Numbered from the stretch's first letter, positions 1-24,972 are shown. The stretch: DNA of 64,000 nt from Candidatus Omnitrophota bacterium (GCA_024231025.1 JAAEQW010000312.1:3238-67237), one strand, 5' to 3'. The notes: generated by a model not told the origin, from the sequence alone. Program-made: numbers and translations.

Positions 1-741
1 TCCCTCTAATGGAACCAACGGCCGCAAATCCGGAGGAATAACCGGCAAGAGATCAAGGACCATCCACTCCGGCTTATTGTCAGAACGCCGTAGATCCTCT
101 ACAATTCCAATTCTTTTAAGCAGGCGCTTATTAGCAGATGCCTTTCCTTTAGCAATCTCAATACGCAAATTCTTACCTACTTTCACCAAATCGACTCTCT
201 TTAGAAGTTCCTTTACCGCAGGTGCACCAATGCCAATTTTTAAATCACTGCCATATTCTTTTAAAGCTTTGCGATACTCATCTTCGTTAAGAAGTTGTTT
301 CTCCTTAAACGGAGAAGAGCCCGGATCAATTACAATATGCTCTTCATAATAAACAACCTTTTCAAGCTCCTTAACGCTCATATCCAAAACCGCACCAATT
401 CGTGAGCTAACAACTTTAAAAAACCAAATATGTGTTACCGGAGCCGCTAAGTCAATGTGCGCCATCCGTTGGCGTCGCACCGAAGAGTGTATTACTTCAA
501 CACCGCAACGATCACACCGTGTACCCTTAAATTTAACACCTTTTAATTTTCCGCAGTGACACTCCCAATCTTTAGTTGGACCAAAAATTCTTTCACAAAA
601 AAGACCATCTTTTTCCGGCTTTAAAGTGCGATAATTTAAAGTTTCTGCCTTCTTTATTTCACCAGAAGACCAGCTTTTCATTACCCCAGGAGAAGCCAAT
701 TTTATGCTTATGCGATCAAAAAAACTTACTTCTTCAACCAT
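1..741 (-). CDS. rpoC: DNA-directed RNA polymerase subunit beta' (N-terminal part, gene runs off window start)
   Basis: Reverse-strand translation from ATG at 741 gives MVEEVSFFDRISIKLASPGVMKSWSSGEIKK...CHCGK...CDRCGVEV, the classic RpoC N-terminus with zinc-binding cysteines. It lies immediately downstream of rpoB. Confidence 0.9.
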   Translation of the reverse strand, partial: MVEEVSFFDRISIKLASPGVMKSWSSGEIKKAETLNYRTLKPEKDGLFCERIFGPTKDWECHCGKLKGVKFKGTRCDRCGVEVIHSSVRRQRMAHIDLAAPVTHIWFFKVVSSRIGAVLDMSVKELEKVVYYEEHIVIDPGSSPFKEKQLLNEDEYRKALKEYGSDLKIGIGAPAVKELLKRVDLVKVGKNLRIEIAKGKASANKRLLKRIGIVEDLRRSDNKPEWMVLDLLPVIPPDLRPLVPLEG

Positions 742-752
742 TAACCACTCCT

Positions 753-3700
753 TTATTTTTTCTCTTTTTCGGCCCTGACATCCAAACCAAGACCTTGCAA
801 TTCTTTAACTAAAACATTAAAAGATTCAGGCACTGAAGGTCTGAACTTCTGTTCACCCCTTACAATCGCCTCATATATGCGCGTTCTACCATCTACGTCA
901 TCACTCTTTACGGTAAGCATCTCTTGTAAACAAAATGCAGCACCATAAGCTTCCAAGGCCCAAACTTCCATTTCACCAAACCGCTGACCACCAAATTGAG
1001 CTTTTCCGCCCAAAGGTTGCTGGGTAATTAGTGAATATGGGCCAATTGCCCGAGCATGAATCTTATCATCAACCATGTGTACAAGTTTCATAATGTACAT
1101 ATATCCAACGCCAACTTTCTGCTCAAAACGTTTACCAGTTTGACCATCGAAAAGCACTACCTTTCCATCATCAGAAAGACCTGATTCTTTCAAAAGGTTC
1201 TTAACCTCAGTCTCAGTTGCTCCATCGAACACTGGCGATACCGCTCTAGCACCTAATCGTCGCGCTGCCCACCCTAAGTGCATTTCCAAAAGCTGCCCAA
1301 CATTCATTCGTGAGGGAACCCCTAAAGGATTAAGCAAAACGTCTACCGGAGTTCCATCTTCTAAATAAGGCATATCCTCTTCCGGTAACACTTTAGAAAT
1401 TACACCCTTATTTCCGTGACGTCCAGAAAGTTTATCACCCATAGAAATCTTTCTTTTCATCGCAACAAAAACAACCACTCTTTTTAAAACTCCAGTTGGA
1501 AGTTCGTCGCCTTTGCGAATTTTTGCAATTTCTAGCTCTCGCTCCATCACCAAATCCCTGAGGCGTTCATCATAAATATCAACCATCGCCTTTGCTTCAT
1601 CATTCTCTTCGCAATCACGAACAGTAATTTTGCTTTCACTTTTACCTAATATAGCTGAAAGGCGTCTACTTTTTTCGCTTTTTAAAATTTCTTCCTCTTC
1701 TTCATAGTATTTTTCAATTTCGCGTAATTTTTTAAGCTCTTCGGTTTTTTCTTTCTTCGACTTTCTTCCCCTGTCTTTACGCTGAAAAACCTCTACATTC
1801 ATTATTACGCCATATACTCCTGGGGGAACGCGCAGTGATGTGTCCTTTACATCGGCTGCTTTTTCGCCAAAAATGGCACGCAAAAGTCTTTCTTCAGGAG
1901 AAAGTTCCTTTTCAGTCTTTGGCGTTACCCGTCCAACTAGAATATCATCAGGCATAATCTCAGCACCAATACGAACCACTCCAGTATCATCTAAATTCTT
2001 TAGCGTTTCTTCGCTAACATTAGGAATATCACGTGTAATCTCTTCATTTCCAAGGCGTGTTTCTCGAGCATCAATTTCAAATTTTTCAACATGGATTGAA
2101 GTAAGAATATCGTCTTTAACTAATCTTTCGCTTATAACAATCGCATCTTCAAAATTGTATCCACGCCAAGGCATGAAAGCAACAAGCAAATTTGTTCCAA
2201 GAGCCAACTCACCATGCTGAGTTGCCATACCTTCAGCAATGATCTGTCCCTTTTTGATGTCTTCACCAACATCAACCAACGGACGCTGATTAACACTAGT
2301 GTCGGCGTTGGAACGCTCAAAAGTCTTTAATTTATAAACAAAACTTCCAATCTTGATGTGCCCTGCGTCAACTTCAATAACCTTGCCCGCCTCCTTAGCG
2401 ATAACAACGGTTCCGCTATCACGCACAATTTTTTCTTCGATCCCTGTACAAACCAATGGCCCCTCCGGAAAAAGAAGTGGCACAGATTGACGCTGCATGT
2501 TAGATCCCATAAGAGCCCGATTAGCATCATCATGTTCAAGAAAAGGAATCAAAGTTGCTGAAACAGAAATAATTTGCTGTGGCGAAACATCCATAAACTC
2601 AATATCTTTGGTCTTCAACTTTGGAAACTTACCTTTATATCGAGCATAAATTTCTTTATCTTTTATTTTTCCATCATCTCCAATATTTGGAGTAACTTGG
2701 GCTATCGCACTATTTTCTTCCTCATCGCTAGAAAAATATTCCGCTTTATCAGAAACAATTCCTTTCTCCACCCTACGATAAGGAGTAGTAAGAAAACCCA
2801 ACGGATTAACCTTTACATAAGTGGTTAGAGAAGAAAGAAGTCCAATATTCGCTCCTTCTGGTGTTTCAATTGGACAAATTCTACCGTAATGAGTAGGATG
2901 AACGTCTCGCACTTCAAAACCAGCTCTTTCTCTGGATAATCCACCGGGACCCATCGCCGACAATCTCCTCTTATGAGTCATTTCGGCTAAAGGATTTGTT
3001 TGATCCATAAACTGTGAAAGCGGTGAACGACCAAAGAAATCCTGAATCTGCGTAGAAAACGCGCGAGAATTAATAAGATGCTGAATTGAAAAATCACTGT
3101 TGGAAGAAACTAACGAATATCTTTCAAGAAAAGTTCTCTCAACGCGTAGCAACCCAACCCGCACTTGGTGTTGCAGTAATTCGCCAATTAATTTCACTCG
3201 TCTATTAGACAAATGATCAATATCATCGGTATCTCTTTTACCAGCTTTAACTTCCAGTAAATTCTTTACAATTGAGATAATTGTTGGTAGATCTATAACT
3301 CTCTTTGTCAAAGGCAAATTCATACCAAGCTTTTTGTTAAGTAAATACCTACCAACTCTCCCTAAATCATAACGGCGCCCATCTAAAAACATTCTACGAA
3401 AAACTTCTTTAGCCGCCTCTAATGTAATCGGTTCAGTGGGTCGCATTTTTTTATAAAAATCAAGAAATGCTTCTTCGGTGCTGGTTGTTGAATCTTTCTT
3501 GATTGTGTTTACCAGTTCAGGGTAAGGTTTATCAGAAAAATGATTATAGATGCTATCGGTACTAGATAGACCCATAATCCTTAAAACCATTGTCGCAGGA
3601 AAAGTTTTCCTTCGATCAATAATGGCTGTTATGGTATCGTTAATGTCTGTTCTAAATTCAAGCCAATAACCACGATAAGGTATGATGCGTGCAAAATAAA

Positions 3701-4175
3701 TTCGTTTACCAGTAGGATGAAGATCCTCTTCAAAAAACACTCCCGGAGAACGCTGTAGCTGATTAACAATACTTCTCTCATCGCCATTAATAATAAAGGA
3801 TGCTACATCAGTCATCAATGGCACATCACCTAAATAAATTTCTTGCTCTCTGATGTCCTTCTCCGGACCAACCAATCTAACACGAACCCTTAAGGGTGCA
3901 GCATAGCTTTGGGATCTTCTTACGCACTCTTCTACGCTATAACGCGAACGCCCTATAGCATAAGAAAGAAATTCTAACCGATACTGCTTGTCAGGGCTTT
4001 CCATTGGAAAAACTTCTTCCATGACCTCCTGTAGACCGACCCTTTTTCTTTTTTCCGGTAAGACATCGGCTTGCAGAAACTCTTTAAAAGAGTGCAGCTG
4101 ATGATCAAGAAGATGGGGCATCGAATGATGACTCTTCTTAACCTTCGCGAAAGATAGTTTTTTTATTTTTTTCAA
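753..4175 (-). CDS. rpoB: DNA-directed RNA polymerase subunit beta
   Basis: 1140 aa ORF with hallmark RpoB segments (FGEMEVWALEAYGAA, GRHGNKGVISKV, NVGQLLE). Conserved rpoB-rpoC order. Confidence 0.95.
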   Translation of the reverse strand: MKKIKKLSFAKVKKSHHSMPHLLDHQLHSFKEFLQADVLPEKRKRVGLQEVMEEVFPMESPDKQYRLEFLSYAIGRSRYSVEECVRRSQSYAAPLRVRVRLVGPEKDIREQEIYLGDVPLMTDVASFIINGDERSIVNQLQRSPGVFFEEDLHPTGKRIYFARIIPYRGYWLEFRTDINDTITAIIDRRKTFPATMVLRIMGLSSTDSIYNHFSDKPYPELVNTIKKDSTTSTEEAFLDFYKKMRPTEPITLEAAKEVFRRMFLDGRRYDLGRVGRYLLNKKLGMNLPLTKRVIDLPTIISIVKNLLEVKAGKRDTDDIDHLSNRRVKLIGELLQHQVRVGLLRVERTFLERYSLVSSNSDFSIQHLINSRAFSTQIQDFFGRSPLSQFMDQTNPLAEMTHKRRLSAMGPGGLSRERAGFEVRDVHPTHYGRICPIETPEGANIGLLSSLTTYVKVNPLGFLTTPYRRVEKGIVSDKAEYFSSDEEENSAIAQVTPNIGDDGKIKDKEIYARYKGKFPKLKTKDIEFMDVSPQQIISVSATLIPFLEHDDANRALMGSNMQRQSVPLLFPEGPLVCTGIEEKIVRDSGTVVIAKEAGKVIEVDAGHIKIGSFVYKLKTFERSNADTSVNQRPLVDVGEDIKKGQIIAEGMATQHGELALGTNLLVAFMPWRGYNFEDAIVISERLVKDDILTSIHVEKFEIDARETRLGNEEITRDIPNVSEETLKNLDDTGVVRIGAEIMPDDILVGRVTPKTEKELSPEERLLRAIFGEKAADVKDTSLRVPPGVYGVIMNVEVFQRKDRGRKSKKEKTEELKKLREIEKYYEEEEEILKSEKSRRLSAILGKSESKITVRDCEENDEAKAMVDIYDERLRDLVMERELEIAKIRKGDELPTGVLKRVVVFVAMKRKISMGDKLSGRHGNKGVISKVLPEEDMPYLEDGTPVDVLLNPLGVPSRMNVGQLLEMHLGWAARRLGARAVSPVFDGATETEVKNLLKESGLSDDGKVVLFDGQTGKRFEQKVGVGYMYIMKLVHMVDDKIHARAIGPYSLITQQPLGGKAQFGGQRFGEMEVWALEAYGAAFCLQEMLTVKSDDVDGRTRIYEAIVRGEQKFRPSVPESFNVLVKELQGLGLDVRAEKEKK

Positions 4176-4335
4176 ATTATCCCCCTAATATATCATCAAG
4201 CACAAACTGGGTTATACCTGATTTCAAGAATTACTAATAGACCGCAAAAACTAAATTGCCGATCATTGCAATCTTTTCTCTAACCTATACAACCAAAGCA
4301 CCTTACTGTATTGTTAATCGTAGGATGTCTAAGGG

Positions 4336-4710
4336 TTACTTCAACTCAACGCTTGCTCCAGCAGCCTCAAGTTTCTTTTTGATTTCTTCGGCTTCTTCCT
4401 TACCAACATTTTCCTTAACTGGCTTCGGAGCAGAATCAACCAACCCTTTAGCTTCTTTCAGACCAAGTTCAGTAATTACTCGAACTTCTTTAATTACTGC
4501 TATTTTGTTTGCGCCCGCACCGGTTAGAACAACTGAAAAAGAAGTTTTTTCCTCGACCTCTTCTTCTGCGCCTGCACCGCCGGCTGCTACAGCAGCAACG
4601 GGTGCGCTAGCTGAAACACCAAACTTTTCTTCACAAGCCTTTACTAATTCCGAAAGCTCTAAAACTGTCATTCCCTCCAATATGCCCATCATTTCTTCTA
4701 CTTTTGACAT
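4336..4710 (-). CDS. rplL: 50S ribosomal protein L7/L12
   Basis: 124 aa, Ala/Glu-rich hinge and C-terminal domain [12 protein letters not shown]. Confidence 0.93.
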
Positions 4711-4774
4711 AACGCCCTCCTAATTTGATCTTTGATTATCTAATTCCTAAAAAACTCGCGCTCTTAAGCATCCT

Positions 4775-5302
4775 TTAGTCTTTCTTTTTTTTAATTTCTT
4801 CCACTGTCCAAACAAACTTTAAAATAACTTGATTCATTGCGGCCATAAAACCCGTTAATGGAGAAGCAATCCCACCTAAGGCTTGCGCTAAAAGCACTTC
4901 CTTAGAAGGAAGTTTAGCTAATGCTGTCATCTCCTTAGAATCAACTTTTTTACTCTTTAAAAACCCACCTTTGATCTCTAAGCGCTCATTCTCTTTTGCA
5001 AAATCAACCAACGTCTTACACGCCCCAACAACATCCTCATCACGAACAAATATAACGCCGGTCTCTTTGCCTAAAAGAGTAGCAGTCTCATCAAAACCTA
5101 AATCGTTAAACGCCTTTTCAAACAATGAGTTCTTTGCAACAAAAACCCTTGCACCAGCTTTTCTCAAATCATTGCGCACTGCACTAAGGGAAGATGCCTT
5201 AACCTTATTGAAATTAATAAAAAAACAAGCATTCGCCCCATCGGCCTTCTCTTTTATTTCCCCAACTATCTGCTCTCTTACTACCAAACCTAAGCTTTTC
5301 AT
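4775..5302 (-). CDS. rplJ: 50S ribosomal protein L10
   Basis: 175 aa, position between rplA and rplL, L10-like sequence. Confidence 0.9.
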   Translation of the reverse strand: MKSLGLVVREQIVGEIKEKADGANACFFINFNKVKASSLSAVRNDLRKAGARVFVAKNSLFEKAFNDLGFDETATLLGKETGVIFVRDEDVVGACKTLVDFAKENERLEIKGGFLKSKKVDSKEMTALAKLPSKEVLLAQALGGIASPLTGFMAAMNQVILKFVWTVEEIKKKKD

Positions 5303-16734: not shown

Positions 16735-16925
16735 TGGCGGCAGGGAAAGATATTAAGGGTTCCCTTCCCTTTTTAGGAGGATGAGGCAAGCGCATCCCGT
16801 AAAAACACTTCACGTTAACGGGACAGGCGCCGGAAGCAACGGATACGCCTCTGGCGTAGCAGTCTGACGACTGCGCTTGCCGAGGGAGGAATTTTGTCTC
16901 TCCTCTGTTATAATTACGATTTTCA
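16735..16925. ncRNA. GC-rich structured non-coding element, candidate ncRNA of unknown class
   Basis: A ~190 nt stretch much more GC-rich than its surroundings. Nested complementary segments: GGAGGAGAG/CTCATCCTCC, GGCAAGCGCA/TGCGCTTGCC (10 bp), ACGCC/GGCGT, TCCCGT/ACGGGA. Plus-strand hairpin GGGAAAG...CCTTCCC followed by TTTTT at 16745-16775. No credible protein; the listed 70 aa ORF is low-complexity. Confidence 0.35.
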
Positions 16926-16956: not shown

Positions 16957-17073
16957 TTAATAGGCGCCAGTATAATCTCTGCACACATCATCCTGAACCT
17001 CAACTACAAACAAACTTACAAAACAAGCAAACACAAAACATAAAATTCCCAAAAATACAACCTTTCTCATCAT
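16957..17073 (-). CDS. small hydrophobic peptide (38 aa), translationally coupled to upstream TPR gene
   Basis: Unlisted ORF MMRKVVFLGILCFVFACFVSLFVVEVQDDVCRDYTGAY. Strong SD AAGGAGAGC overlaps the stop codon of the 17081..18727 gene. Confidence 0.35.
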   Translation of the reverse strand: MMRKVVFLGILCFVFACFVSLFVVEVQDDVCRDYTGAY

Positions 17074-17080
17074 GCTCTCC

Positions 17081-18727
17081 TTAATGCTCTTTTACATCAA
17101 ATATGCCGTCATCAATATAATCATTTAAAGAAACAATTTCTATCTGCCAATCTTGAGTTAAATGTGCTGTATCCTGAATAAAACCTTTTCTTTTTCCCCG
17201 TAACGGAAAATGCAACCCTTCAACCTCCTGCACCGATTTAATAACAGTTTCTGTCGCTAAATCTTCTTTTCGTCCACTCCCAAACACTCCACGCCAATAC
17301 TCACGTTCCATAACTATGAGATTAAATTTAGTATCAATTAAAAACTCTATTCTTACTATTGGTGGCCAATTGTCCTCTTGTGTTTCATTATAGTTAGCAG
17401 TTACCAAATAAAGGCTGGAATTATGTTCAGTATATAAGTCTTTCAACTCTTCAGGGATATTCTCTATTCTTTTAATCCCGCTCAGACGTAATTTTCTAGA
17501 TTCGATATAACCTTCGATGTCTAATTTACGTAGACTCATAAGATAATCAACAGCTCCAGGTTGCATATCATAGGGATCATCCACCTTGTTAGTTCTGCCG
17601 TCAACCATATATAGTTTATTTTCGGTAAAAATACTTATAGCGCGCCTAGTAATGGTCTTTAAATAAAAAGGGCTTTTATAATAGGCCTCTTCAAGCGTTT
17701 CGCTCGTGCTCCCGGAAACTTTCTTATAATGTATTGTTTGAATCCTACCCATGTCATCATTGCAGGTCTTCACTAGTCCGTTTAATGTTTTATCGCTATC
17801 TGAAAGCTGATAAAGGGACGATCGTGATAAGTCATAATTTTCTAGCCTCTTAACTGCCTTATTTTTATATTTTAGTTTCTCGTCTTGTGAGATTCCGTCA
17901 TATAATAGGATTAATTCTGTATCTTCGCCGCTAATAAGCTGCTTCATCATCTCCTTCTGAGATTCACCTCTCTCTAGGACTCTCACTCCAAGCTCAGCAG
18001 CATCATAGTGACCAATAGTTTTTCTCAAAAATTCTAAATATTGCTGATCCTGAGCAATCTCCGAAGATAATTCAAAAGTTTTTTCTAAATGATACATTAT
18101 CCGCAAACATAACTCCTCGGAAAAATACTTCTGCTGTCCAATCTCATTATAACAATCAACTAAGCGATAATGTATTTTTGATAAGTCATTATTCAAAGTT
18201 TGGCGGCCGATTATTTCAGGGTTAGCTAGCATGATATTGATTGCATCTGAAAAATATTTGGTAGCATCAAGGTAACGTTTCTTGTTGTAACAATATTCAC
18301 CCAACCAATAATTAATCTCTGGGTGATTTGGATATTGAGTGTATTTCTCCTGGAGAATCGCTAAGCCCTGTTCAATGTTATCAATCCTCCAATAGTCCAA
18401 TACAACAGCAATCGCCTCTTCTATTTCTCTCATTTCTCTTTGGCTGAAACTGGCTTGTTTCATTGTGCTACTGCTAGAAACCGATCTTTGGGAAATATCT
18501 GTATAATGCCCTATGTCCTGTTCTGTACTTCCTTCTACATAATCAATGTCATCCAAATAATATGTCAAAAGCACGCCATGGATATTAGCCTTTATAAAAT
18601 CTACATTTCTTTCAATAATTTCTCCCTCTACCTTTTTCCCATCCTTTAGATGAATAGTGGCGCAGAAACAAACACTGACAGAAGAACTTGTAATAAATAA
18701 AATCAAAATAAGTATTTTCAAAAACAT
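17081..18727 (-). CDS. secreted TPR-repeat protein with conserved N-terminal beta-rich domain (paralog of 21930..23234)
   Basis: 548 aa, signal peptide MFLKILILILFITSSSVSVCFC. N-domain IHLKDGKKVEGEIIERNVDFIKANIHGVLLTYYLDDIDYVEG, then TPR-like helices. Confidence 0.6.
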   Translation of the reverse strand: MFLKILILILFITSSSVSVCFCATIHLKDGKKVEGEIIERNVDFIKANIHGVLLTYYLDDIDYVEGSTEQDIGHYTDISQRSVSSSSTMKQASFSQREMREIEEAIAVVLDYWRIDNIEQGLAILQEKYTQYPNHPEINYWLGEYCYNKKRYLDATKYFSDAINIMLANPEIIGRQTLNNDLSKIHYRLVDCYNEIGQQKYFSEELCLRIMYHLEKTFELSSEIAQDQQYLEFLRKTIGHYDAAELGVRVLERGESQKEMMKQLISGEDTELILLYDGISQDEKLKYKNKAVKRLENYDLSRSSLYQLSDSDKTLNGLVKTCNDDMGRIQTIHYKKVSGSTSETLEEAYYKSPFYLKTITRRAISIFTENKLYMVDGRTNKVDDPYDMQPGAVDYLMSLRKLDIEGYIESRKLRLSGIKRIENIPEELKDLYTEHNSSLYLVTANYNETQEDNWPPIVRIEFLIDTKFNLIVMEREYWRGVFGSGRKEDLATETVIKSVQEVEGLHFPLRGKRKGFIQDTAHLTQDWQIEIVSLNDYIDDGIFDVKEH

Positions 18728-18766
18728 AATTACTCCCTGAATTTTCGGCTTACGGTTTAACCAAGA

Positions 18767-21121
18767 TTATAGAGAATCTTCCATACCTGCAATCTCGACC
18801 CTCTTAACTTCGGCATTAAAATCACACCTTAATTTTTTTACTTGAGGGTGTTCTAGGGAATATTTGGTTAAAGGTCTCAACAAGACATCCTGTATTGCCC
18901 GATTTAAAAACCGCCCTCCATACTCTACACTAAACCCCTGAGTGATTATATAATTATAAATATCTTCAGAAATTATAATCTCTTTCCCTTTTTCTTTAAG
19001 TCTACCTATTACTTGGTCTATCTTTTGTTTAGCGATTTTTTTAATTACCTCCTCGGAAAGAAAATTAAAATAAAGTATATCGTCTAAACGATTAAGGAAC
19101 TCGGGAGCAAAAAATTTCTTGATTTCCGGCTCGATCTGTACTTTTATATAAGATTGTATCTTGTCAGGATCAATGTTTTTGATATCACTTTCCTTAAGAT
19201 TCTTTACACCTAAATTAGATGTCATAATTATTGTTGCAAAGCTAAATGAAACAGTTTCCCCCTTGGCATCTGTTAATCTTCCATCATCGAACATCTGCAA
19301 AAACAACCTTAAAACATCGGGGTGTGATTTTTCTACCTCATCAAACAAAATAACAGAATAAGGGTTTGCCTTAACAACATTTGTCAATACACCGCCCTCT
19401 TCGCTACCTTGATAACCAGGTGGAGAACCAATCAATTTTGATGCATTATGCTTTTCCATAAATTCAGACATATCAAACCTAAGCAACTGACTTTCGCTGC
19501 CCAGTAATGACTCAGCCAAAGCCTTAGCTAGTTCTGTCTTTCCTGTACCGGTAGAACCAACTATTAAGAAAACACCATCGGGTCGTTGTGGCTTAATATC
19601 CATCTCGTACTTGGTAAGCTGAATAACATCGACTATCCTTCTAATTGCTTCATCCTGACCGTGCACTTTTTTCTTTAGTTTATCTTCTAAATCTAAAAAT
19701 ATCTTTTCCTGAGAAAAAAGAATCTGATTTACCGGAATCCTCATAACATCAGATACAATCTGAGCTATCACATTAGCATCAACATTTTTTCCATCTACCT
19801 CAGATAACGAAACCCTACTTGCAGCCCTGTCTAAAAGAGATAATGCCTTACCCGGCAAACACCTATCTTTAATATACTTTGACGAGATATCAATAGCCGC
19901 TTCTACCGCGTCATTGTCAATTGGAACCTGGTGATATTCACTATATTTTCCTGCTGCATTTTGTAAAATTTTATGAACCGTAGCTATATTTGGCTCATCT
20001 ATTCGTATAACTTCAAAACCTCTAGCTAAAGATGTATCTTTTTCAACTTGTTTTTGATAATCACTTATAGTAGTTGTCCCAATACAACATAGTTGACCTC
20101 GCAATAAAGCTGGCTTAAAAAGATTGGCTGCGCTTGATACACCTTCACCACCTGCCCCAATCATCTGATGTATATCAGAAAGAAAAAGTATTATATTCTC
20201 ATCATCCTTACATTCTTCTAATATTTTCTGAATCCGTTCTTCAAACTGTCCTCGTAATGTAGTTCCAGCGATTAATCCTCCTAAATTAATTTCGATAATC
20301 TTCTTACTCTTTAAACGTTCGGATGCTTTACCCTTCACTATCCTATCCGCTAAACCATCCACGATGGCAGTTTTACCAACCCCTGGCTGACCTATTAAAA
20401 TTACATTATTTTGCCCTTGCCTCAAAAGAACTTCTTCAACCGCGGTAATCTCCTTCTCTCTTCCTACAATTTCAGTAAACTTACCATCCTCGGCTAACAA
20501 ATTTAGGTTACTGCCGTATTTATCTAAAGTTTTTTCCCTAAAATTAGAAAAAGACTTATATGGTTTCGCTTGTTCACACTTCTGAGCTTCTCGAATAGCT
20601 TCTTTCTCAAAGAAGCTCATCGAACTGTCAATTTTTCTATTTTCCATTATGGCGTCAACATGCTTAATGATACGTGCAAACTCAACAAGACATTCCTGCT
20701 TTATGCCAAAAGTATCCTCAAATAATTTCAACACACCGTTATACTTATCTCGATACTTAAATATCGCTCTTAAAATATGCTCCTCACACACCACTACAGA
20801 ATCGCTATCTTTGGCTTCTTTTTCTACATGTTTGAAAAAGATCTCCTCTTTCTTCCAATTTTCTTCTGTAGGCTCATCTTCCTTTGTGTCGTAAATATAA
20901 CCATGTAGTAAGTTTTTCACGGCGGGTGTACATAAAGAAAAACGCCTAGATAACATAATATAGAAAAGATGTTTTAAATCAGCAAAAGCCAAAAAAGTTA
21001 GTTCATAGTTAACTGGTGGATCAACGTGACTAAAAGCTGGTGATAACTTCCTAGCTTTATTAACAATCGTCTCCGCTCCTTTATTAAACTGCATCTCTGT
21101 ACCCTTAACGAAGAATTTCAT
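18767..21121 (-). CDS. ClpA/ClpC-like double-ring AAA+ ATPase (no M-domain, no obvious ClpP-docking IGF/IGL loop)
   Basis: 784 aa. Clp_N-like repeats, D1 Walker A GQPGVGKTA, D2 Walker A GSTGTGKTE, D2 motifs GYQGSEEGGVLT and ILFDEVEKSHPDV...DDGRLTD. D1-D2 spacing is ClpA-like. Confidence 0.7.
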   Translation of the reverse strand: MKFFVKGTEMQFNKGAETIVNKARKLSPAFSHVDPPVNYELTFLAFADLKHLFYIMLSRRFSLCTPAVKNLLHGYIYDTKEDEPTEENWKKEEIFFKHVEKEAKDSDSVVVCEEHILRAIFKYRDKYNGVLKLFEDTFGIKQECLVEFARIIKHVDAIMENRKIDSSMSFFEKEAIREAQKCEQAKPYKSFSNFREKTLDKYGSNLNLLAEDGKFTEIVGREKEITAVEEVLLRQGQNNVILIGQPGVGKTAIVDGLADRIVKGKASERLKSKKIIEINLGGLIAGTTLRGQFEERIQKILEECKDDENIILFLSDIHQMIGAGGEGVSSAANLFKPALLRGQLCCIGTTTISDYQKQVEKDTSLARGFEVIRIDEPNIATVHKILQNAAGKYSEYHQVPIDNDAVEAAIDISSKYIKDRCLPGKALSLLDRAASRVSLSEVDGKNVDANVIAQIVSDVMRIPVNQILFSQEKIFLDLEDKLKKKVHGQDEAIRRIVDVIQLTKYEMDIKPQRPDGVFLIVGSTGTGKTELAKALAESLLGSESQLLRFDMSEFMEKHNASKLIGSPPGYQGSEEGGVLTNVVKANPYSVILFDEVEKSHPDVLRLFLQMFDDGRLTDAKGETVSFSFATIIMTSNLGVKNLKESDIKNIDPDKIQSYIKVQIEPEIKKFFAPEFLNRLDDILYFNFLSEEVIKKIAKQKIDQVIGRLKEKGKEIIISEDIYNYIITQGFSVEYGGRFLNRAIQDVLLRPLTKYSLEHPQVKKLRCDFNAEVKRVEIAGMEDSL

Positions 21122-21169
21122 TCTACCTCACTTTCAAGATATCTTTTCATAAATGGAAAAACACGCATT

Positions 21170-21880
21170 TTAATCCTTTAGTAATTCTTGAGGTACAAAT
21201 TCTTCGATTAATTCTTTCTGAGAAACTGCAGGAGTTGTATATGCTCCGCCTAAATCATAAAGTAAGTTTTCTGCTTCATCATGCTTAAATTCTCTAGCCA
21301 AAGTAACTGCGGTGGCATTATTTTTATCTTTAAAATGTAATTTTGCTCCTTCAGAAAATAGCAATTTAATAACGTCCGTAAAACCTAGACATGCTGCTTC
21401 CATGATAGCAGTTCTCCCGTATTTATTTTGTTTGTTAATATCAACCCCCGCAAAAACAATTAACTTAATGATTTCCAAATTATTCTTATAAACAGCCCAA
21501 ATCAAAGGAGTTTTATCATTATTATCTTCTATACCCAAAATAGCACTATTTTTTATCAACAATTTAACCATATCTTCATGTTCCATCATTACAGCAATCG
21601 CAATTGCTGTTCTCCCATCCTCATTCTTAGCATCAACTTTAGCTCCTCTGGAAATCAATAATTCTGCTATCTCAACATTCCCTTCAGCAGCAGCAAACAT
21701 AAGTGGTGTATCATCGTATTTAAATCTTTTGTTTACATCAAACCCACCATCAACTAATTCTTCTATTTTTGAAACTTTCTTAAGCTTAATGCACTTTATA
21801 AATTCACTATCTATAGATTGAGCCAATACATTAAAGAGTATTCCAAAAGAGATTAATGATAGTATAAATAATTTTAGCAT
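21170..21880 (-). CDS. secreted ankyrin-repeat protein
   Basis: 236 aa, signal peptide MLKLFILSLISFGILFNVLAQS, then about five ANK repeats (TPLMFAAAEGNVEIAELLISRGAKVDAKNEDGRTA...). Confidence 0.75.
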   Translation of the reverse strand: MLKLFILSLISFGILFNVLAQSIDSEFIKCIKLKKVSKIEELVDGGFDVNKRFKYDDTPLMFAAAEGNVEIAELLISRGAKVDAKNEDGRTAIAIAVMMEHEDMVKLLIKNSAILGIEDNNDKTPLIWAVYKNNLEIIKLIVFAGVDINKQNKYGRTAIMEAACLGFTDVIKLLFSEGAKLHFKDKNNATAVTLAREFKHDEAENLLYDLGGAYTTPAVSQKELIEEFVPQELLKD

Positions 21881-21929
21881 AAGTCTCCTTATTAAACCTT
21901 ATGTATTATATCCTCATTACCAACCTATT

Positions 21930-23234
21930 TTACCTTCTTTTTTCTGCCTTGTCTAATATAGCTAATACTTCCTTGGCTAGATCCGAAGAAGGATTTATTT
22001 CTAAAGCCTTATAGATGTCATCTTTGGCTTTATTATAGTCCTTGAGATGAGAATACGCCAATGCACGATCAATTAAAGCAACGAATTTAATTTGAAATGA
22101 TCCCAACTTGATAGCTTTTGTGGCATTTTGGACACTTTGCTCAAAATCATTATCCTCATAATTAACCTGTGCTTTAAATGAATACGGTTCAGAATATCTG
22201 GGTTCAATAGAAATAGCTTCATCCAAATCTTCATACGCATCAGCAATATTTCCTTGCTCTGAAAAAACCTTAGCACGATTTAAACAATACAGGGGATTTC
22301 CTGGATCATATTTTTTTGCCTGACTATATAAAATGAGAGCCTTACTATAATCTCCATTAGCAAAAGCAACAAGCCCTTGAGCATTAAACTTCTCAGCTAA
22401 TATGGCATTTCGATCCCCATTTAAAACCCTCAAAAGTAAACCTTCTTTTTTACTCTTTAAAAAATAATGTTCACCTATGCCAAAGCTACGCCCACCTAAT
22501 TGAACAAAATCTCCTTTTCTAATATCAAACCAGTAATAATTCCTATCATTTAATTTAATCAATCCAAATGAATGTGGGCCTAAACTGTTTTCATCCCACT
22601 CCTTGATACCTTCTCCAATTAGTTGCGCTAAAATAAATTCCAACTTTAGAGCCCGCATAAAAATCCATCCTAATTGTGTAAATCCAACACAATTTATTCT
22701 TCTAGTATCAAAAACTTCACGTAAATCGTAAACACCTATATCATAATCAAAGAGTGATAGAAGTTTATCTTGTATGGACTGTGCAATTTCTATCTCCAAA
22801 TCAACAAGATATTTTTTGTTAGATTCCCCCTCTAATGCTTTCCGTAAATGTTTGAGTTTATCATATTTTTTAATCAAATTTAAAGATCTCGCCATATCTA
22901 TAATCTTATCGCTAACTTCAACATCATATCCTAACTCATCAACATATTTTTTAATTGAACTAACGATATGCTCTTCCGACGAAGAAATAAAAGACTGAAC
23001 TACTATATGTTTTCCATCAATGCTCTCAATATCGTCTAAATAATAAGTTAGAGGCAAACCTTCAATATCAATCTTTATACTCTCATTATTTCGCTCAACA
23101 ATTTCCCCTTCTACAACCTGACCGCTTTTAAGCTTGATGGTTTCAGGATAAGCAAGATAACTTGGCAAAATTAACAACAACAAAATATAAACTATTTTTC
23201 TCATTTTCTTCTCTAATAAAATCTGACTACTCAT
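21930..23234 (-). CDS. secreted TPR-repeat protein with conserved N-terminal domain (paralog of 17081..18727)
   Basis: 434 aa, signal peptide. N-domain IKLKSGQVVEGEIVERNNESIKIDIEGLPLTYYLDDIESIDGK, C-terminal TPR repeats. Confidence 0.65.
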   Translation of the reverse strand: MSSQILLEKKMRKIVYILLLLILPSYLAYPETIKLKSGQVVEGEIVERNNESIKIDIEGLPLTYYLDDIESIDGKHIVVQSFISSSEEHIVSSIKKYVDELGYDVEVSDKIIDMARSLNLIKKYDKLKHLRKALEGESNKKYLVDLEIEIAQSIQDKLLSLFDYDIGVYDLREVFDTRRINCVGFTQLGWIFMRALKLEFILAQLIGEGIKEWDENSLGPHSFGLIKLNDRNYYWFDIRKGDFVQLGGRSFGIGEHYFLKSKKEGLLLRVLNGDRNAILAEKFNAQGLVAFANGDYSKALILYSQAKKYDPGNPLYCLNRAKVFSEQGNIADAYEDLDEAISIEPRYSEPYSFKAQVNYEDNDFEQSVQNATKAIKLGSFQIKFVALIDRALAYSHLKDYNKAKDDIYKALEINPSSDLAKEVLAILDKAEKRR

Positions 23235-23284: not shown

Positions 23285-23452
23285 CTATTCCCTCCAATCC
23301 TCAATAATCAACCTTTTCCCTACCTTTTTCACAACTACCTTTTGCTTCAACCTCCACCCCAACTCTTCAATATAATCAGTAGGTATGGTTACATAATATG
23401 TGTATCTTCCTGTTTTTGTGATTTTTCGAATTTGTTTCTTTTTGTTTGGCAT
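23285..23452 (-). CDS. AbrB/MazE/SpoVT-family swapped-hairpin DNA-binding protein (55 aa)
   Basis: Unlisted ORF MPNKKKQIRKITKTGRYTYYVTIPTDYIEELGWRLKQKVVVKKVGKRLIIEDWRE, fitting the G..x..V.IP....ELG...GD.V pattern. SD GGGAGG 5-6 nt upstream of ATG. Confidence 0.6.
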   Translation of the reverse strand: MPNKKKQIRKITKTGRYTYYVTIPTDYIEELGWRLKQKVVVKKVGKRLIIEDWRE

Positions 23453-23972: not shown

Positions 23973-24422
23973 TCAAAATAAATCTCTCTCGGGATTTTTT
24001 TCTTTAACTAAACTAACTATTTTCTTAATCAAACTGTCAGCTGTTTCTAAACATGCTTCTGCTTCGCTATGAGTAACGTGATTTTTTGATTCATATATAA
24101 AATCGTGCCTTCTCCTTCTCAGTCTATTAAATTTGCTAACCAAGGTATCGTATTCATGGCCCAATAATAATTTCGTAACCTCAATAATCGTCTTATGCGA
24201 TCTTTTTGTTGTCGGCAGATAACCTCTCGAATACATAAGTGCCCGACCAGCTCTAATCATAGCATGATAGGCAATCGCCAATGACCAAGTTAAGTCAATC
24301 TTAAGATTAGCGTCCGCTGTTTTCAAGTCTTTTAATGATCTTTGCAGCTGCTTATTGACCTGTTTAAAGTCGGGCGTTTGCTTCTTTATAAGCTTATCTC
24401 TTAGAAATTTTTCGTAATTCAC
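23973..24422 (-). CDS. hepT: HEPN-domain toxin (HepT-like)
   Basis: 149 aa, Rx4-6H motif in RLRRRRHDFIY. Overlaps and sits downstream of an MNT gene, the canonical mntA-hepT arrangement. Confidence 0.8.
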   Translation of the reverse strand: MNYEKFLRDKLIKKQTPDFKQVNKQLQRSLKDLKTADANLKIDLTWSLAIAYHAMIRAGRALMYSRGYLPTTKRSHKTIIEVTKLLLGHEYDTLVSKFNRLRRRRHDFIYESKNHVTHSEAEACLETADSLIKKIVSLVKEKNPERDLF

Positions 24423-24972
24423 CTTTATCTCCTATAAGCATTATCTTCTTCTCTTTTAGAATACCTAAAATAAATGGCTCCTCTTCCTTAATCTCTTGAG
24501 CAAACTCTTTCAATTTATAAAACTTATAATTTATCTCCCTTTGCAGTTTCTCTTCTAATTTATCTAACTTTTTGATTAGCTGACTCTCGTCTGGATTACC
24601 AATAATCATAAGATCTATATCGGAAAGGTAGTTCTCTTTACCTTTAGCGTAAGAACCATAAATAAAAGCAACCTTTATGCCCTTAAGCTCTTCTAGTTTT
24701 GCCCTCAGGCTCGCCTCCACGCCGACAGTTTTAAAAGTAATGCTCTTTAGCTCCTTATAAAGAGGGTAACTCTTATTCACCTTAAAATACCTAGCGTTTG
24801 CTTTATGTTCGCTGTTTAAAACACCTTCGCATACTAAATTATTAATGGTCCGTTGAAATACACCCGGCTTTTTGCCTAAAATCCTACCTACCTCCTGCAT
24901 ATAAAAAGATTTCTCAGGATTAGTAAAAAATAACCTTAGTAATTCTGCCCTATTTTTTGTCAGTGGTTTCAT
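24394..24972 (-). CDS. mntA: minimal nucleotidyltransferase antitoxin (MntA-like) with N-terminal wHTH
   Basis: 192 aa, nucleotidyltransferase motif VAFIYGSYAKGKENYLSDIDLMIIG (GS..x..DxD), N-terminal winged-helix region, 29-nt overlap with the HEPN gene. Confidence 0.8.
   Translation of the reverse strand: MKPLTKNRAELLRLFFTNPEKSFYMQEVGRILGKKPGVFQRTINNLVCEGVLNSEHKANARYFKVNKSYPLYKELKSITFKTVGVEASLRAKLEELKGIKVAFIYGSYAKGKENYLSDIDLMIIGNPDESQLIKKLDKLEEKLQREINYKFYKLKEFAQEIKEEEPFILGILKEKKIMLIGDKGELRKISKR

Follow-up and report, generated by a model that had tools for sequence, protein, structure and literature searches.

The 64,000-nucleotide stretch of Candidatus Omnitrophota DNA analyzed here (GCA_024231025.1 JAAEQW010000312.1:3238-67237, hereafter the window) carries on its minus strand four closely packed open reading frames (ORFs), A, B, C and D, located exactly where a first-pass annotation made from the sequence alone had placed them (Table 1). 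A carries tetratricopeptide repeats (TPR), B ankyrin repeats, C is an AAA+ ATPase of the Hsp100 type and D shares a short N-terminal domain with A. The first-pass annotation suggested that this run works as one module equipped with its own unfoldase. The comparisons presented below lead us to consider the locus, with reasonable but not full confidence, as a lineage-specific gene run in which three apparently Sec-exported repeat proteins lie beside an Hsp100 that stands alone in related sequences, and not as a conserved multi-gene system. The domain shared by A and D, a predicted small beta-barrel belonging to a large family, and the unusual AAA+ modules of C are each of interest in their own right.

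Gene organization

The four genes are separated by 39-49 nt, and the run is bounded by gaps of 738 and 413 nt, each holding one small ORF; the tight spacing noted in the first-pass annotation is therefore real. Shine-Dalgarno sites precede B (a strong AAGGAG), C, D and the 38-aa ORF that follows D, and no convincing terminator was found within the run. Given these gaps, ribosome-binding sites and the lack of an internal terminator, A to D are probably co-transcribed. The common orientation of the genes, also cited in the annotation, is correct but uninformative, since every plausible gene of the window lies on the minus strand; the GC skew is negative across the whole window (1-64000), the cumulative skew dropping steadily to -6.0. 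The start of A calls for a minor correction: because no Shine-Dalgarno site precedes Met1 and a weak one precedes Met11, translation probably begins at Met11 (nt 23204), as judged from the sequence.

Table 1. Coordinates of the genes, domains and flanking features, counted from the first nucleotide of the window (residue numbers for the motifs of C).
Feature	Position	Strand	Description
Gene A	21930-23234	minus	ORF; 434 aa as listed
Gene B	21170-21880	minus	ORF; 236 aa
Gene C	18767-21121	minus	ORF; 784 aa
Gene D	17081-18727	minus	ORF; 548 aa
N-domain of A	23010-23144	minus	residues 31-75; predicted five-stranded Sm/SH3-like small beta-barrel
Central region of A	22449-23009	minus	residues 76-262; helices 85-161, then a poorly modelled stretch
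TPR array of A	21936-22448	minus	residues 263-433; AlphaFold2 helical hairpins, predicted local distance difference test (pLDDT) 88-96
N-domain of D	18530-18661	minus	residues 23-66; 104 bits in profile search
D1 Walker A of C	residues 244-251		
D1 pore loop of C	residues 285-296		TLR versus KYR
D1 Walker B of C	residues 310-319		LSDI versus IDE[VIL]
D2 Walker A of C	residues 522-529		
D2 pore loop of C	within residues 565-573		GYQG
D2 Walker B of C	residues 590-598		
38-aa hydrophobic ORF	16957-17073	minus	MMRKVVFLGILCFVFACFVSLFVVEVQDDVCRDYTGAY; read from sequence; begins 8 nt past the D stop
55-aa AbrB/MazE-like ORF	23285-23452	minus	read from sequence; upstream of A
HEPN and nucleotidyltransferase genes	23973-24972	minus	overlapping pair of toxin-antitoxin type, upstream of the run
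GC-rich stretch	16735-16915	minus	between the 38-aa ORF and the radical-SAM methylthiotransferase gene

Signal peptides were assigned from hydrophobicity and family position and are predictions. The 12-residue Kyte-Doolittle means of the N-termini reach 2.7-3.1 in A, B and D and only 0.06 in C. In the protein family that shares the N-domain of A and D, a junction between A and ETI recurs after the hydrophobic leader, and the hydrophobic leader of B ends in VLA followed by QS. This heuristic evidence supports the signal peptides proposed earlier: the products of A, B and D look Sec-exported, and C, having no signal peptide, is predicted to be cytoplasmic.

The small beta-barrel shared by A and D

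A BLASTP comparison of A and D aligned a 48-aa segment, directly following the signal-peptide-like N-terminus, with 26/48 identical residues (54%, E 2e-12). The shared segment reported in the first-pass annotation is thus confirmed. No other similarity connects the two proteins, so that their description as paralogues applies to this N-domain and not to the remainder of their sequences. Regular-expression and hidden Markov model (HMM) scans detected only these two copies in the window.

AlphaFold2 predicts five strands for the N-domain, with a pLDDT of 96-97 inside full-length A and of 91.7 for the segment alone. The top Foldseek matches in the PDB are Hfq cores, superposed over 42-43 residues with a query-normalised template modelling (TM) score of 0.77-0.82 and a root-mean-square deviation of 0.6-0.9 Å, and a de novo SH3-type barrel is also among the matches. 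At the sequence level, profile comparison with PDB chains returned weak matches to 7uwy (E 0.019), the Edc3 LSm domain (E 0.54) and SmD1 (E ~1). The models therefore point to an independently folding Sm/SH3-like small beta-barrel of about 45 residues. As in Sm, LSm and Hfq proteins, the predicted barrel is bent and five-stranded, and its opening I-x-L-K-x-G-x-x-V-x-G-x-I resembles the Sm1 motif. It differs from them in having no N-terminal helix, in being predicted to be exported and not cytoplasmic, and in a sequence similarity that does not reach significance.

A three-sequence profile run against 1.84 billion cluster representatives retrieved 1,753 protein clusters at E<=1e-3, 471 of them at E<=1e-10. 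Ten of these clusters were looked up for their origin and yielded two organism names, both Omnitrophota. We examined the 150 best-scoring sequences, namely the 147 top matches together with A, D and P0002. In 138/150 of them, its first residue falls between positions 10 and 29; in A the domain begins at residue 31 (21 if Met11 is the start) and in D at residue 23. The carriers are 57-674 aa long and have varied C-terminal domains, and about one third of the aligned members (48/149) match TPR_8. Four proteins (P0125, P0127, P0140 and P0204) contain a second copy in tandem, deeper in the protein. The domain is clearly modular: P0002 bears it on an unrelated C-terminus, and P0004, with 33% identity across 78% of the D sequence, has a signal peptide and the body of D but lacks the N-domain. 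A scan of metagenome contigs with a single N-domain sequence gave at least five loci, all short.

No Pfam family covers the N-domain in any of the 149 aligned members scanned. All 149, by contrast, match the NCBIfam family NF047433 (best E 2.6e-17), and most also match the N-termini of the PTPDL and LB_137 families. The matches have significant E-values but fall short of the cutoff wherever scores were compared with it: NF047433 scores 28.9 bits on A (E 6.8e-7) and 18.4 bits on D, both under its 43-bit cutoff, and among ten further members eight score 29.9-40.9 bits, so that none reaches the cutoff; P0133 and P0002 give no match at E<=1e-6. NF047433, or 'Lepto_7_Nterm', describes the N-terminal domain of LA_0442 and LA_0875 of Leptospira and, like the N-domain, places a signal peptide followed by the first strands at the extreme N-terminus. 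The two differ in that every N-domain member scored falls under the NF047433 cutoff and in that this model covers only part of the barrel, ending after the signal peptide and first strands. To our knowledge, no function is on record for the NF047433 domain, and a literature search on LA_0442, PTPDL and LB_137 found nothing. On these profile scores, the N-domain is widespread, has no model of its own and is related to a domain that bears a name but is uncharacterised. The novelty claimed for it in the first-pass annotation holds in the sense that no Pfam model names it, and has to be given up in view of its wide distribution and its relation to NF047433.

Two N-domain-TPR paralogues were also found in tandem in another contig (L090 106-2224). 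A C-terminal motif, approximately 'AW.DVHKAE.LG....PEFL..LKKASGR..', is shared by many TPR proteins (L087 11125-13523, L090 106-2224, L091 1524-2969) and probably corresponds to NCBIfam NF047558, TPR_END_plus.

Proteins A, B and D beyond the barrel

In A, the signal peptide and small barrel are followed by a helical region, a putative Cys/His/Asp region and C-terminal TPRs. The latter are unambiguous: Pfam TPR_1 scores 61.4 bits (cutoff 27.8, residues 270-430), TPR_2 60.3 bits (cutoff 27), and TPR_8 is above its cutoff as well. The approximately 190 aa preceding the repeats are not TPR, and this central region has no match in Pfam at E<=10 or in the PDB profile search; AlphaFold2 pLDDT is below 50 for residues 163-261. 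Homologues of A are sparse. The database search returned A itself and P0002, and a single full-length homologue was found (L091 1524-2969, 27% identical, E 6e-34). This homologue keeps Cys182, His221 and Asp237 of A. In the model of A, Cys182 lies just ahead of helix 184-206, and His221 and Asp237 at the edges of strands 223-229 and 232-237, a layout also found in papain- and transglutaminase-like cores. A peptidase-like Cys-His-Asp triad can be put forward as a hypothesis only. With a putative triad followed by TPRs, A would be comparable to the cysteine peptidase and TPR proteins of NCBIfam NF033920 (PA2778 family); that model, however, matches the TPR part of A alone (E 0.015), and the triad region is without sequence match and modelled with a pLDDT below 50.

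The ankyrin nature of B, as first annotated, is well supported. A predicted signal peptide is followed by about five ankyrin repeats, with Pfam Ank_2 at 121.7 bits (1.9e-35) and Ank at 104.1 bits (1.3e-30), both above the gathering score.

D is made of a signal peptide, the N-domain, a Ser-rich linker, a weak CpoB-like TPR segment, a conserved helical region and a C-terminal domain. All its Pfam TPR matches are under cutoff: TPR_16 at 17.1 bits (32.7), TPR_2 at 15.9 (27) and TPR_19 at 15.3 (25). A PDB profile search with D and its homologue gave a weak match to the TPRs of CpoB, and none for the C-terminal domain. The statement that both proteins diverge into TPR arrays is consequently valid for A, at its C-terminus and after a long non-TPR region, and does not extend to D, where the repeats stay below threshold. 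A motif of D and its homologue, 'YKSP(D/F)(K/Y)LK...DG/P..KV', looks LolA-like by eye and is at most a candidate.

C, a divergent Hsp100 with a degenerate D1 module

C contains both AAA+ modules, D1 and D2 (Pfam AAA_2, 2.1e-57). Its N-terminus gives no Pfam Clp_N match even at E<=10; in a profile-profile comparison with hhalign, the N-termini of C and its closest relatives nevertheless align with the Clp_N domains of ClpC and ClpB (88%, E 2.8e-6, 139 collinear columns). Thus, of the 'Clp-N plus D1 plus D2' architecture first proposed, the two AAA+ modules are directly recognized and Clp_N is recovered by hhalign alone, Pfam being silent. C remains below the equivalog cutoffs of ClpB (TIGR03346, 597.6 bits against 1232.1), ClpA (TIGR02639, 577.6 against 993.15) and ClpV (TIGR03345, 568.8 against 884.95).

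A few proteins (P0005-P0015 and P0017), 44-62% identical to C, about 770-790 aa long and likewise without a Pfam Clp_N match, form a small clade with it. We compared motifs in alignments of the 120 best Clp matches, which include 108 sequences outside this clade. The D1 Walker B motif reads [LFV][SPA][DS][IVF] in the clade (LSDI in C) and IDE[VILM] in 108/108 of the others; the loss of the 'DE' pair from D1 is exclusive to the clade among these 120 matches. The D1 pore loop carries TLR where the others have a KYR-type sequence. Between D1 and D2, the clade has 17 residues, as opposed to 60-130 in the other sequences, where this segment corresponds to the M-domain (60-79 in ClpC, about 120-130 in ClpB). 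The ClpP-docking loop [ILVFM]G[FLIM], present in 100/108 of the others, is absent from the clade, and in C itself no such motif occurs in residues 638-656, after MTSNLG. D2, on the other hand, is intact in its Walker A, Walker B and GYQG pore loop. C, presumably cytoplasmic, can be described as a class-I Hsp100 in which D2 is intact, D1 degenerate and the putative Clp_N divergent, and which has neither an M-domain nor a ClpP-docking loop.

The comparison with known Hsp100s helps to place it. Like ClpA, C combines an N-domain, D1 and D2 in about 780 aa without a middle domain; unlike ClpA, it lacks the IG[LF]-type ClpP loop and has lost the Walker B motif and the pore tyrosine of D1. The missing loop and the low TIGR02639 score contradict the designation 'ClpA-like'. 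The absence of a ClpP loop is shared with ClpB/Hsp104 and ClpV (TssH), whose models give similar scores, while ClpB and ClpC possess the coiled-coil M-domain that C lacks. No type VI secretion genes lie next to C in the window region examined or at five orthologue loci.

Human CLPB (Skd3) fuses ankyrin repeats to a single D2-type AAA+ module. The D2 region of C matches PDB entries 7ttr and 7us2, and the likeness lies in ankyrin repeats occurring together with an Hsp100 in which D2 would in effect be the sole motor. Here, however, the repeats are carried by B, a separate protein with a signal peptide. A Skd3-like pairing of ankyrin repeats and D2 was rejected: B appears exported, its adjacency to C is not conserved and the C orthologues at the five loci examined have no ankyrin neighbour.

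Mechanistically, C would act as an unfoldase or holdase independent of both ClpP and DnaK and powered by the D2 ring alone. Drive by D2 alone is suggested by the loss of the Walker B acidic pair and the pore tyrosine from D1, and a stand-alone threading role by the lack of the ClpP loop; we infer this D2-driven mechanism from motifs in the sequence. The clade would then be a natural experiment on the capacities of a class-I Hsp100 that relies on its D2 ring alone.

One further Omnitrophota protein, P0016 (760 aa, 39% identical to C), resembles the clade in having no M-domain, no ClpP loop and no pore tyrosine in D1; its D1 Walker B, however, is canonical (IDEI), and Pfam recognizes a Clp_N domain in it. 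It may be an intermediate between ordinary Hsp100s and the C clade.

Conservation of the neighbourhood

Orthologues of C, 44-62% identical, were examined in five genomic contexts (L002, L003, L004/L005, L086 and the P0013 contig). At none of these loci does the orthologue have an ankyrin, TPR or N-domain neighbour, and the surrounding genes are unrelated. Conversely, the locus of the A homologue (L091) and that of the D homologue (P0004) contain no Clp or ankyrin gene, and N-domain loci L001, L088/89, L090, L091, L095 and L096 are devoid of both Clp and ankyrin genes. A broader scan of genome contigs with C used the pattern FDMSEFME, which is generic; it returned at least 80 loci of ordinary ClpC/ClpB proteins (36-42% identity) and was not used for synteny. 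A possible synteny between the window and L002, the contig of the closest C orthologue, was dropped, the sole gene in common being a pseudouridine synthase with 33% identity.

Of about nine N-domain loci, L087 alone has ankyrin neighbours: behind its N-domain-TPR gene comes a gene for a protein with a signal peptide, ankyrin repeats and TPRs, then one for a 219-aa ankyrin protein with a signal peptide, collinear with B and 32% identical to it over 194 aa. Apart from L087, the neighbours of the run are thus not conserved together, and the co-occurrence of the N-domain with ClpA-like and ankyrin genes that the first-pass annotation proposed to look for is absent from the loci examined except for these ankyrin genes. 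In the Omnitrophota literature searched, nothing was found on ankyrin, TPR or Clp proteins.

Beside the C orthologue of L086, on the opposite strand, an ORF of more than 1,714 aa (1-4982) remains open at the contig end. Giant genes have been reported in Omnitrophota, and this long ORF is in line with them.

Interpretation of the locus

The observations above are best accounted for by a gene run proper to its lineage, probably transcribed as a unit, in which nothing connects the function of C with A, B or D. Several points weigh against this view. The C orthologue contexts number only five and several of the contigs are short. The L087 locus repeats the adjacency of an N-domain-TPR gene and secreted ankyrin genes, one of them with the architecture of B. 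The low GC of A and B, detailed below, hints at a pair travelling together. The tight packing of the run points to co-transcription, so that a functional link specific to the lineage may exist. The signal peptides, on which the exported nature of three products depends, were read from hydrophobicity and family position. Finally, the role attributed below to the barrel is drawn from position, conservation and fold alone.

For the barrel, the most likely role is that of a handle acting after export. Its fixed position, its conservation, which is far above that of the carrier domains, and its fold argue for this role. Once outside the cytoplasm, it would dock or oligomerise its carriers in the envelope, through either a shared partner or an Sm-like edge-to-edge pairing of strands. 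The variable C-terminal parts, such as the TPRs, the putative Cys-His-Asp region of A and the terminal domain of D, would in turn provide the specific function of each carrier. A bolder version, which we mention tentatively and regard as doubtful, would make the barrel an extracytoplasmic Sm-like assembly or sorting module, present in near-identical copies on A, D and many other exported proteins of each genome, whose carriers co-assemble in rings through edge-strand pairing or share one envelope receptor, the C clade being a new D2-only class of Hsp100s working without ClpP or DnaK. If true, this interpretation of the barrel would reveal an undescribed means by which Omnitrophota, and more distantly Leptospira, organize or anchor their exported proteins.

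A different partition of the run was also considered, with A and B as a small mobile pair of genes whose exported products act together outside the cytoplasm, for instance on a host or prey cell, C and D being unrelated neighbours; the pair would have been inserted beside an Hsp100 gene already resident there. Of the 54 genes of the window, A and B rank lowest in GC content (0.325 and 0.315, for a mean of 0.381 and a standard deviation of 0.026), B being the minimum, with GC3 z-scores of -2.3 and -3.1 respectively; C and D are ordinary in this respect. Such values could reflect a separate acquisition, but they could equally stem from the amino-acid composition of repeat proteins. The L087 arrangement, with two signal-peptide ankyrin genes beside an N-domain-TPR gene and one of them collinear with B, speaks for such a pair; yet it is found at only one of about nine N-domain loci, a 32% identity is ordinary for any pair of ankyrin proteins and no ankyrin gene adjoins the A homologue of L091. 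Also in favour of such a unit, published surveys of Omnitrophota genomes suggest that these bacteria depend on hosts or live as predators (PMC10066038). On balance, we judge a mobile A-B unit unlikely.

The original proposal of a single envelope or host-interaction system, with C as the dedicated unfoldase of exported TPR and ankyrin proteins, is decidedly improbable. The 39-49 nt spacing and the larger bounding gaps speak in its favour. Against it, C has no signal peptide although the proteins it would unfold look exported, each of the five orthologue loci examined shows C on its own among different genes, A and D have homologues at loci devoid of C, and co-directionality carries no information in a one-strand window. 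As the comparisons do not support such a system, the 'secretome island with a dedicated unfoldase' has no importance of its own.

We give hardly any credit to an anti-phage defence locus associating an AAA+ ATPase with ankyrin and TPR sensors. PADLOC models match B (PDC-M72A, 9e-37) and C (PDC-M37B, 1.8e-32; DolB, 3.7e-28), but these matches cover generic ankyrin repeats and the D2 AAA module alone, and neither A nor D is matched. Three of the four proteins moreover look exported and would be unfit for sensing phages in the cytoplasm, and the neighbourhood is not conserved; the defence reading was rejected on these grounds.

That the N-segment is a foldless, lineage-specific extension of a signal peptide or lipobox, as its position against the signal peptide and the joint modelling of signal peptide and first strands in NF047433 might suggest, is scarcely credible in view of the five confidently predicted strands (pLDDT 92-97), the close structural match to Sm/Hfq barrels, the tandem internal copies in P0125, P0127, P0140 and P0204, and the lack of a canonical lipobox.

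Two by-products of the analysis are of modest value, the Hsp100 clade discussed above and the barrel family. The latter comprises at least 1,753 clusters, is very well conserved and confidently folded in the models, marks exported proteins and has only a partial NCBIfam model. A proper model of the barrel would improve the annotation of exported proteins in an uncultured, possibly host-dependent phylum, and would offer a way into how the exported proteins of Omnitrophota are anchored or assembled.

Flanking genes and features

The run is flanked by housekeeping genes encoding PriA, a glycosyltransferase, a HAD phosphatase, a pseudouridine synthase, a radical-SAM methylthiotransferase, RsmE and Memo-AMMECR1. 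The flanks also carry the HEPN/nucleotidyltransferase pair listed in Table 1. The same two Pfam domains recur in a gene pair that immediately follows the closest C orthologue (L002), but the proteins of the two pairs are not similar by BLAST.

The small ORFs of the bounding gaps may belong to the same transcription unit. Upstream of A, the 55-aa ORF has a GGAGG Shine-Dalgarno site and a weak match to Pfam MazE_antitoxin (E 1.1e-3, 19.3 bits, under the 24.7 cutoff); it may be the first gene of the unit. It is preceded by a promoter-like sequence, TTGCCG-17-TATAAT (23532-23504), although such matches do not exceed chance in this region. At the other end, the 38-aa ORF is hydrophobic (Kyte-Doolittle mean 3.08) and preceded by a strong Shine-Dalgarno site, AAGGAG; it has no Pfam match, is missing from the listing of ORFs of at least 60 aa and may be the last gene of the run. 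An Rfam search of both gaps gave no match.

The GC-rich stretch beyond the 38-aa ORF folds with a minimum free energy of -67.3 kcal/mol (z -4.4), a stability equalled by 0/200 shuffled sequences. With no Rfam match even at E<=1, it could represent an unclassified structured RNA or a leader.

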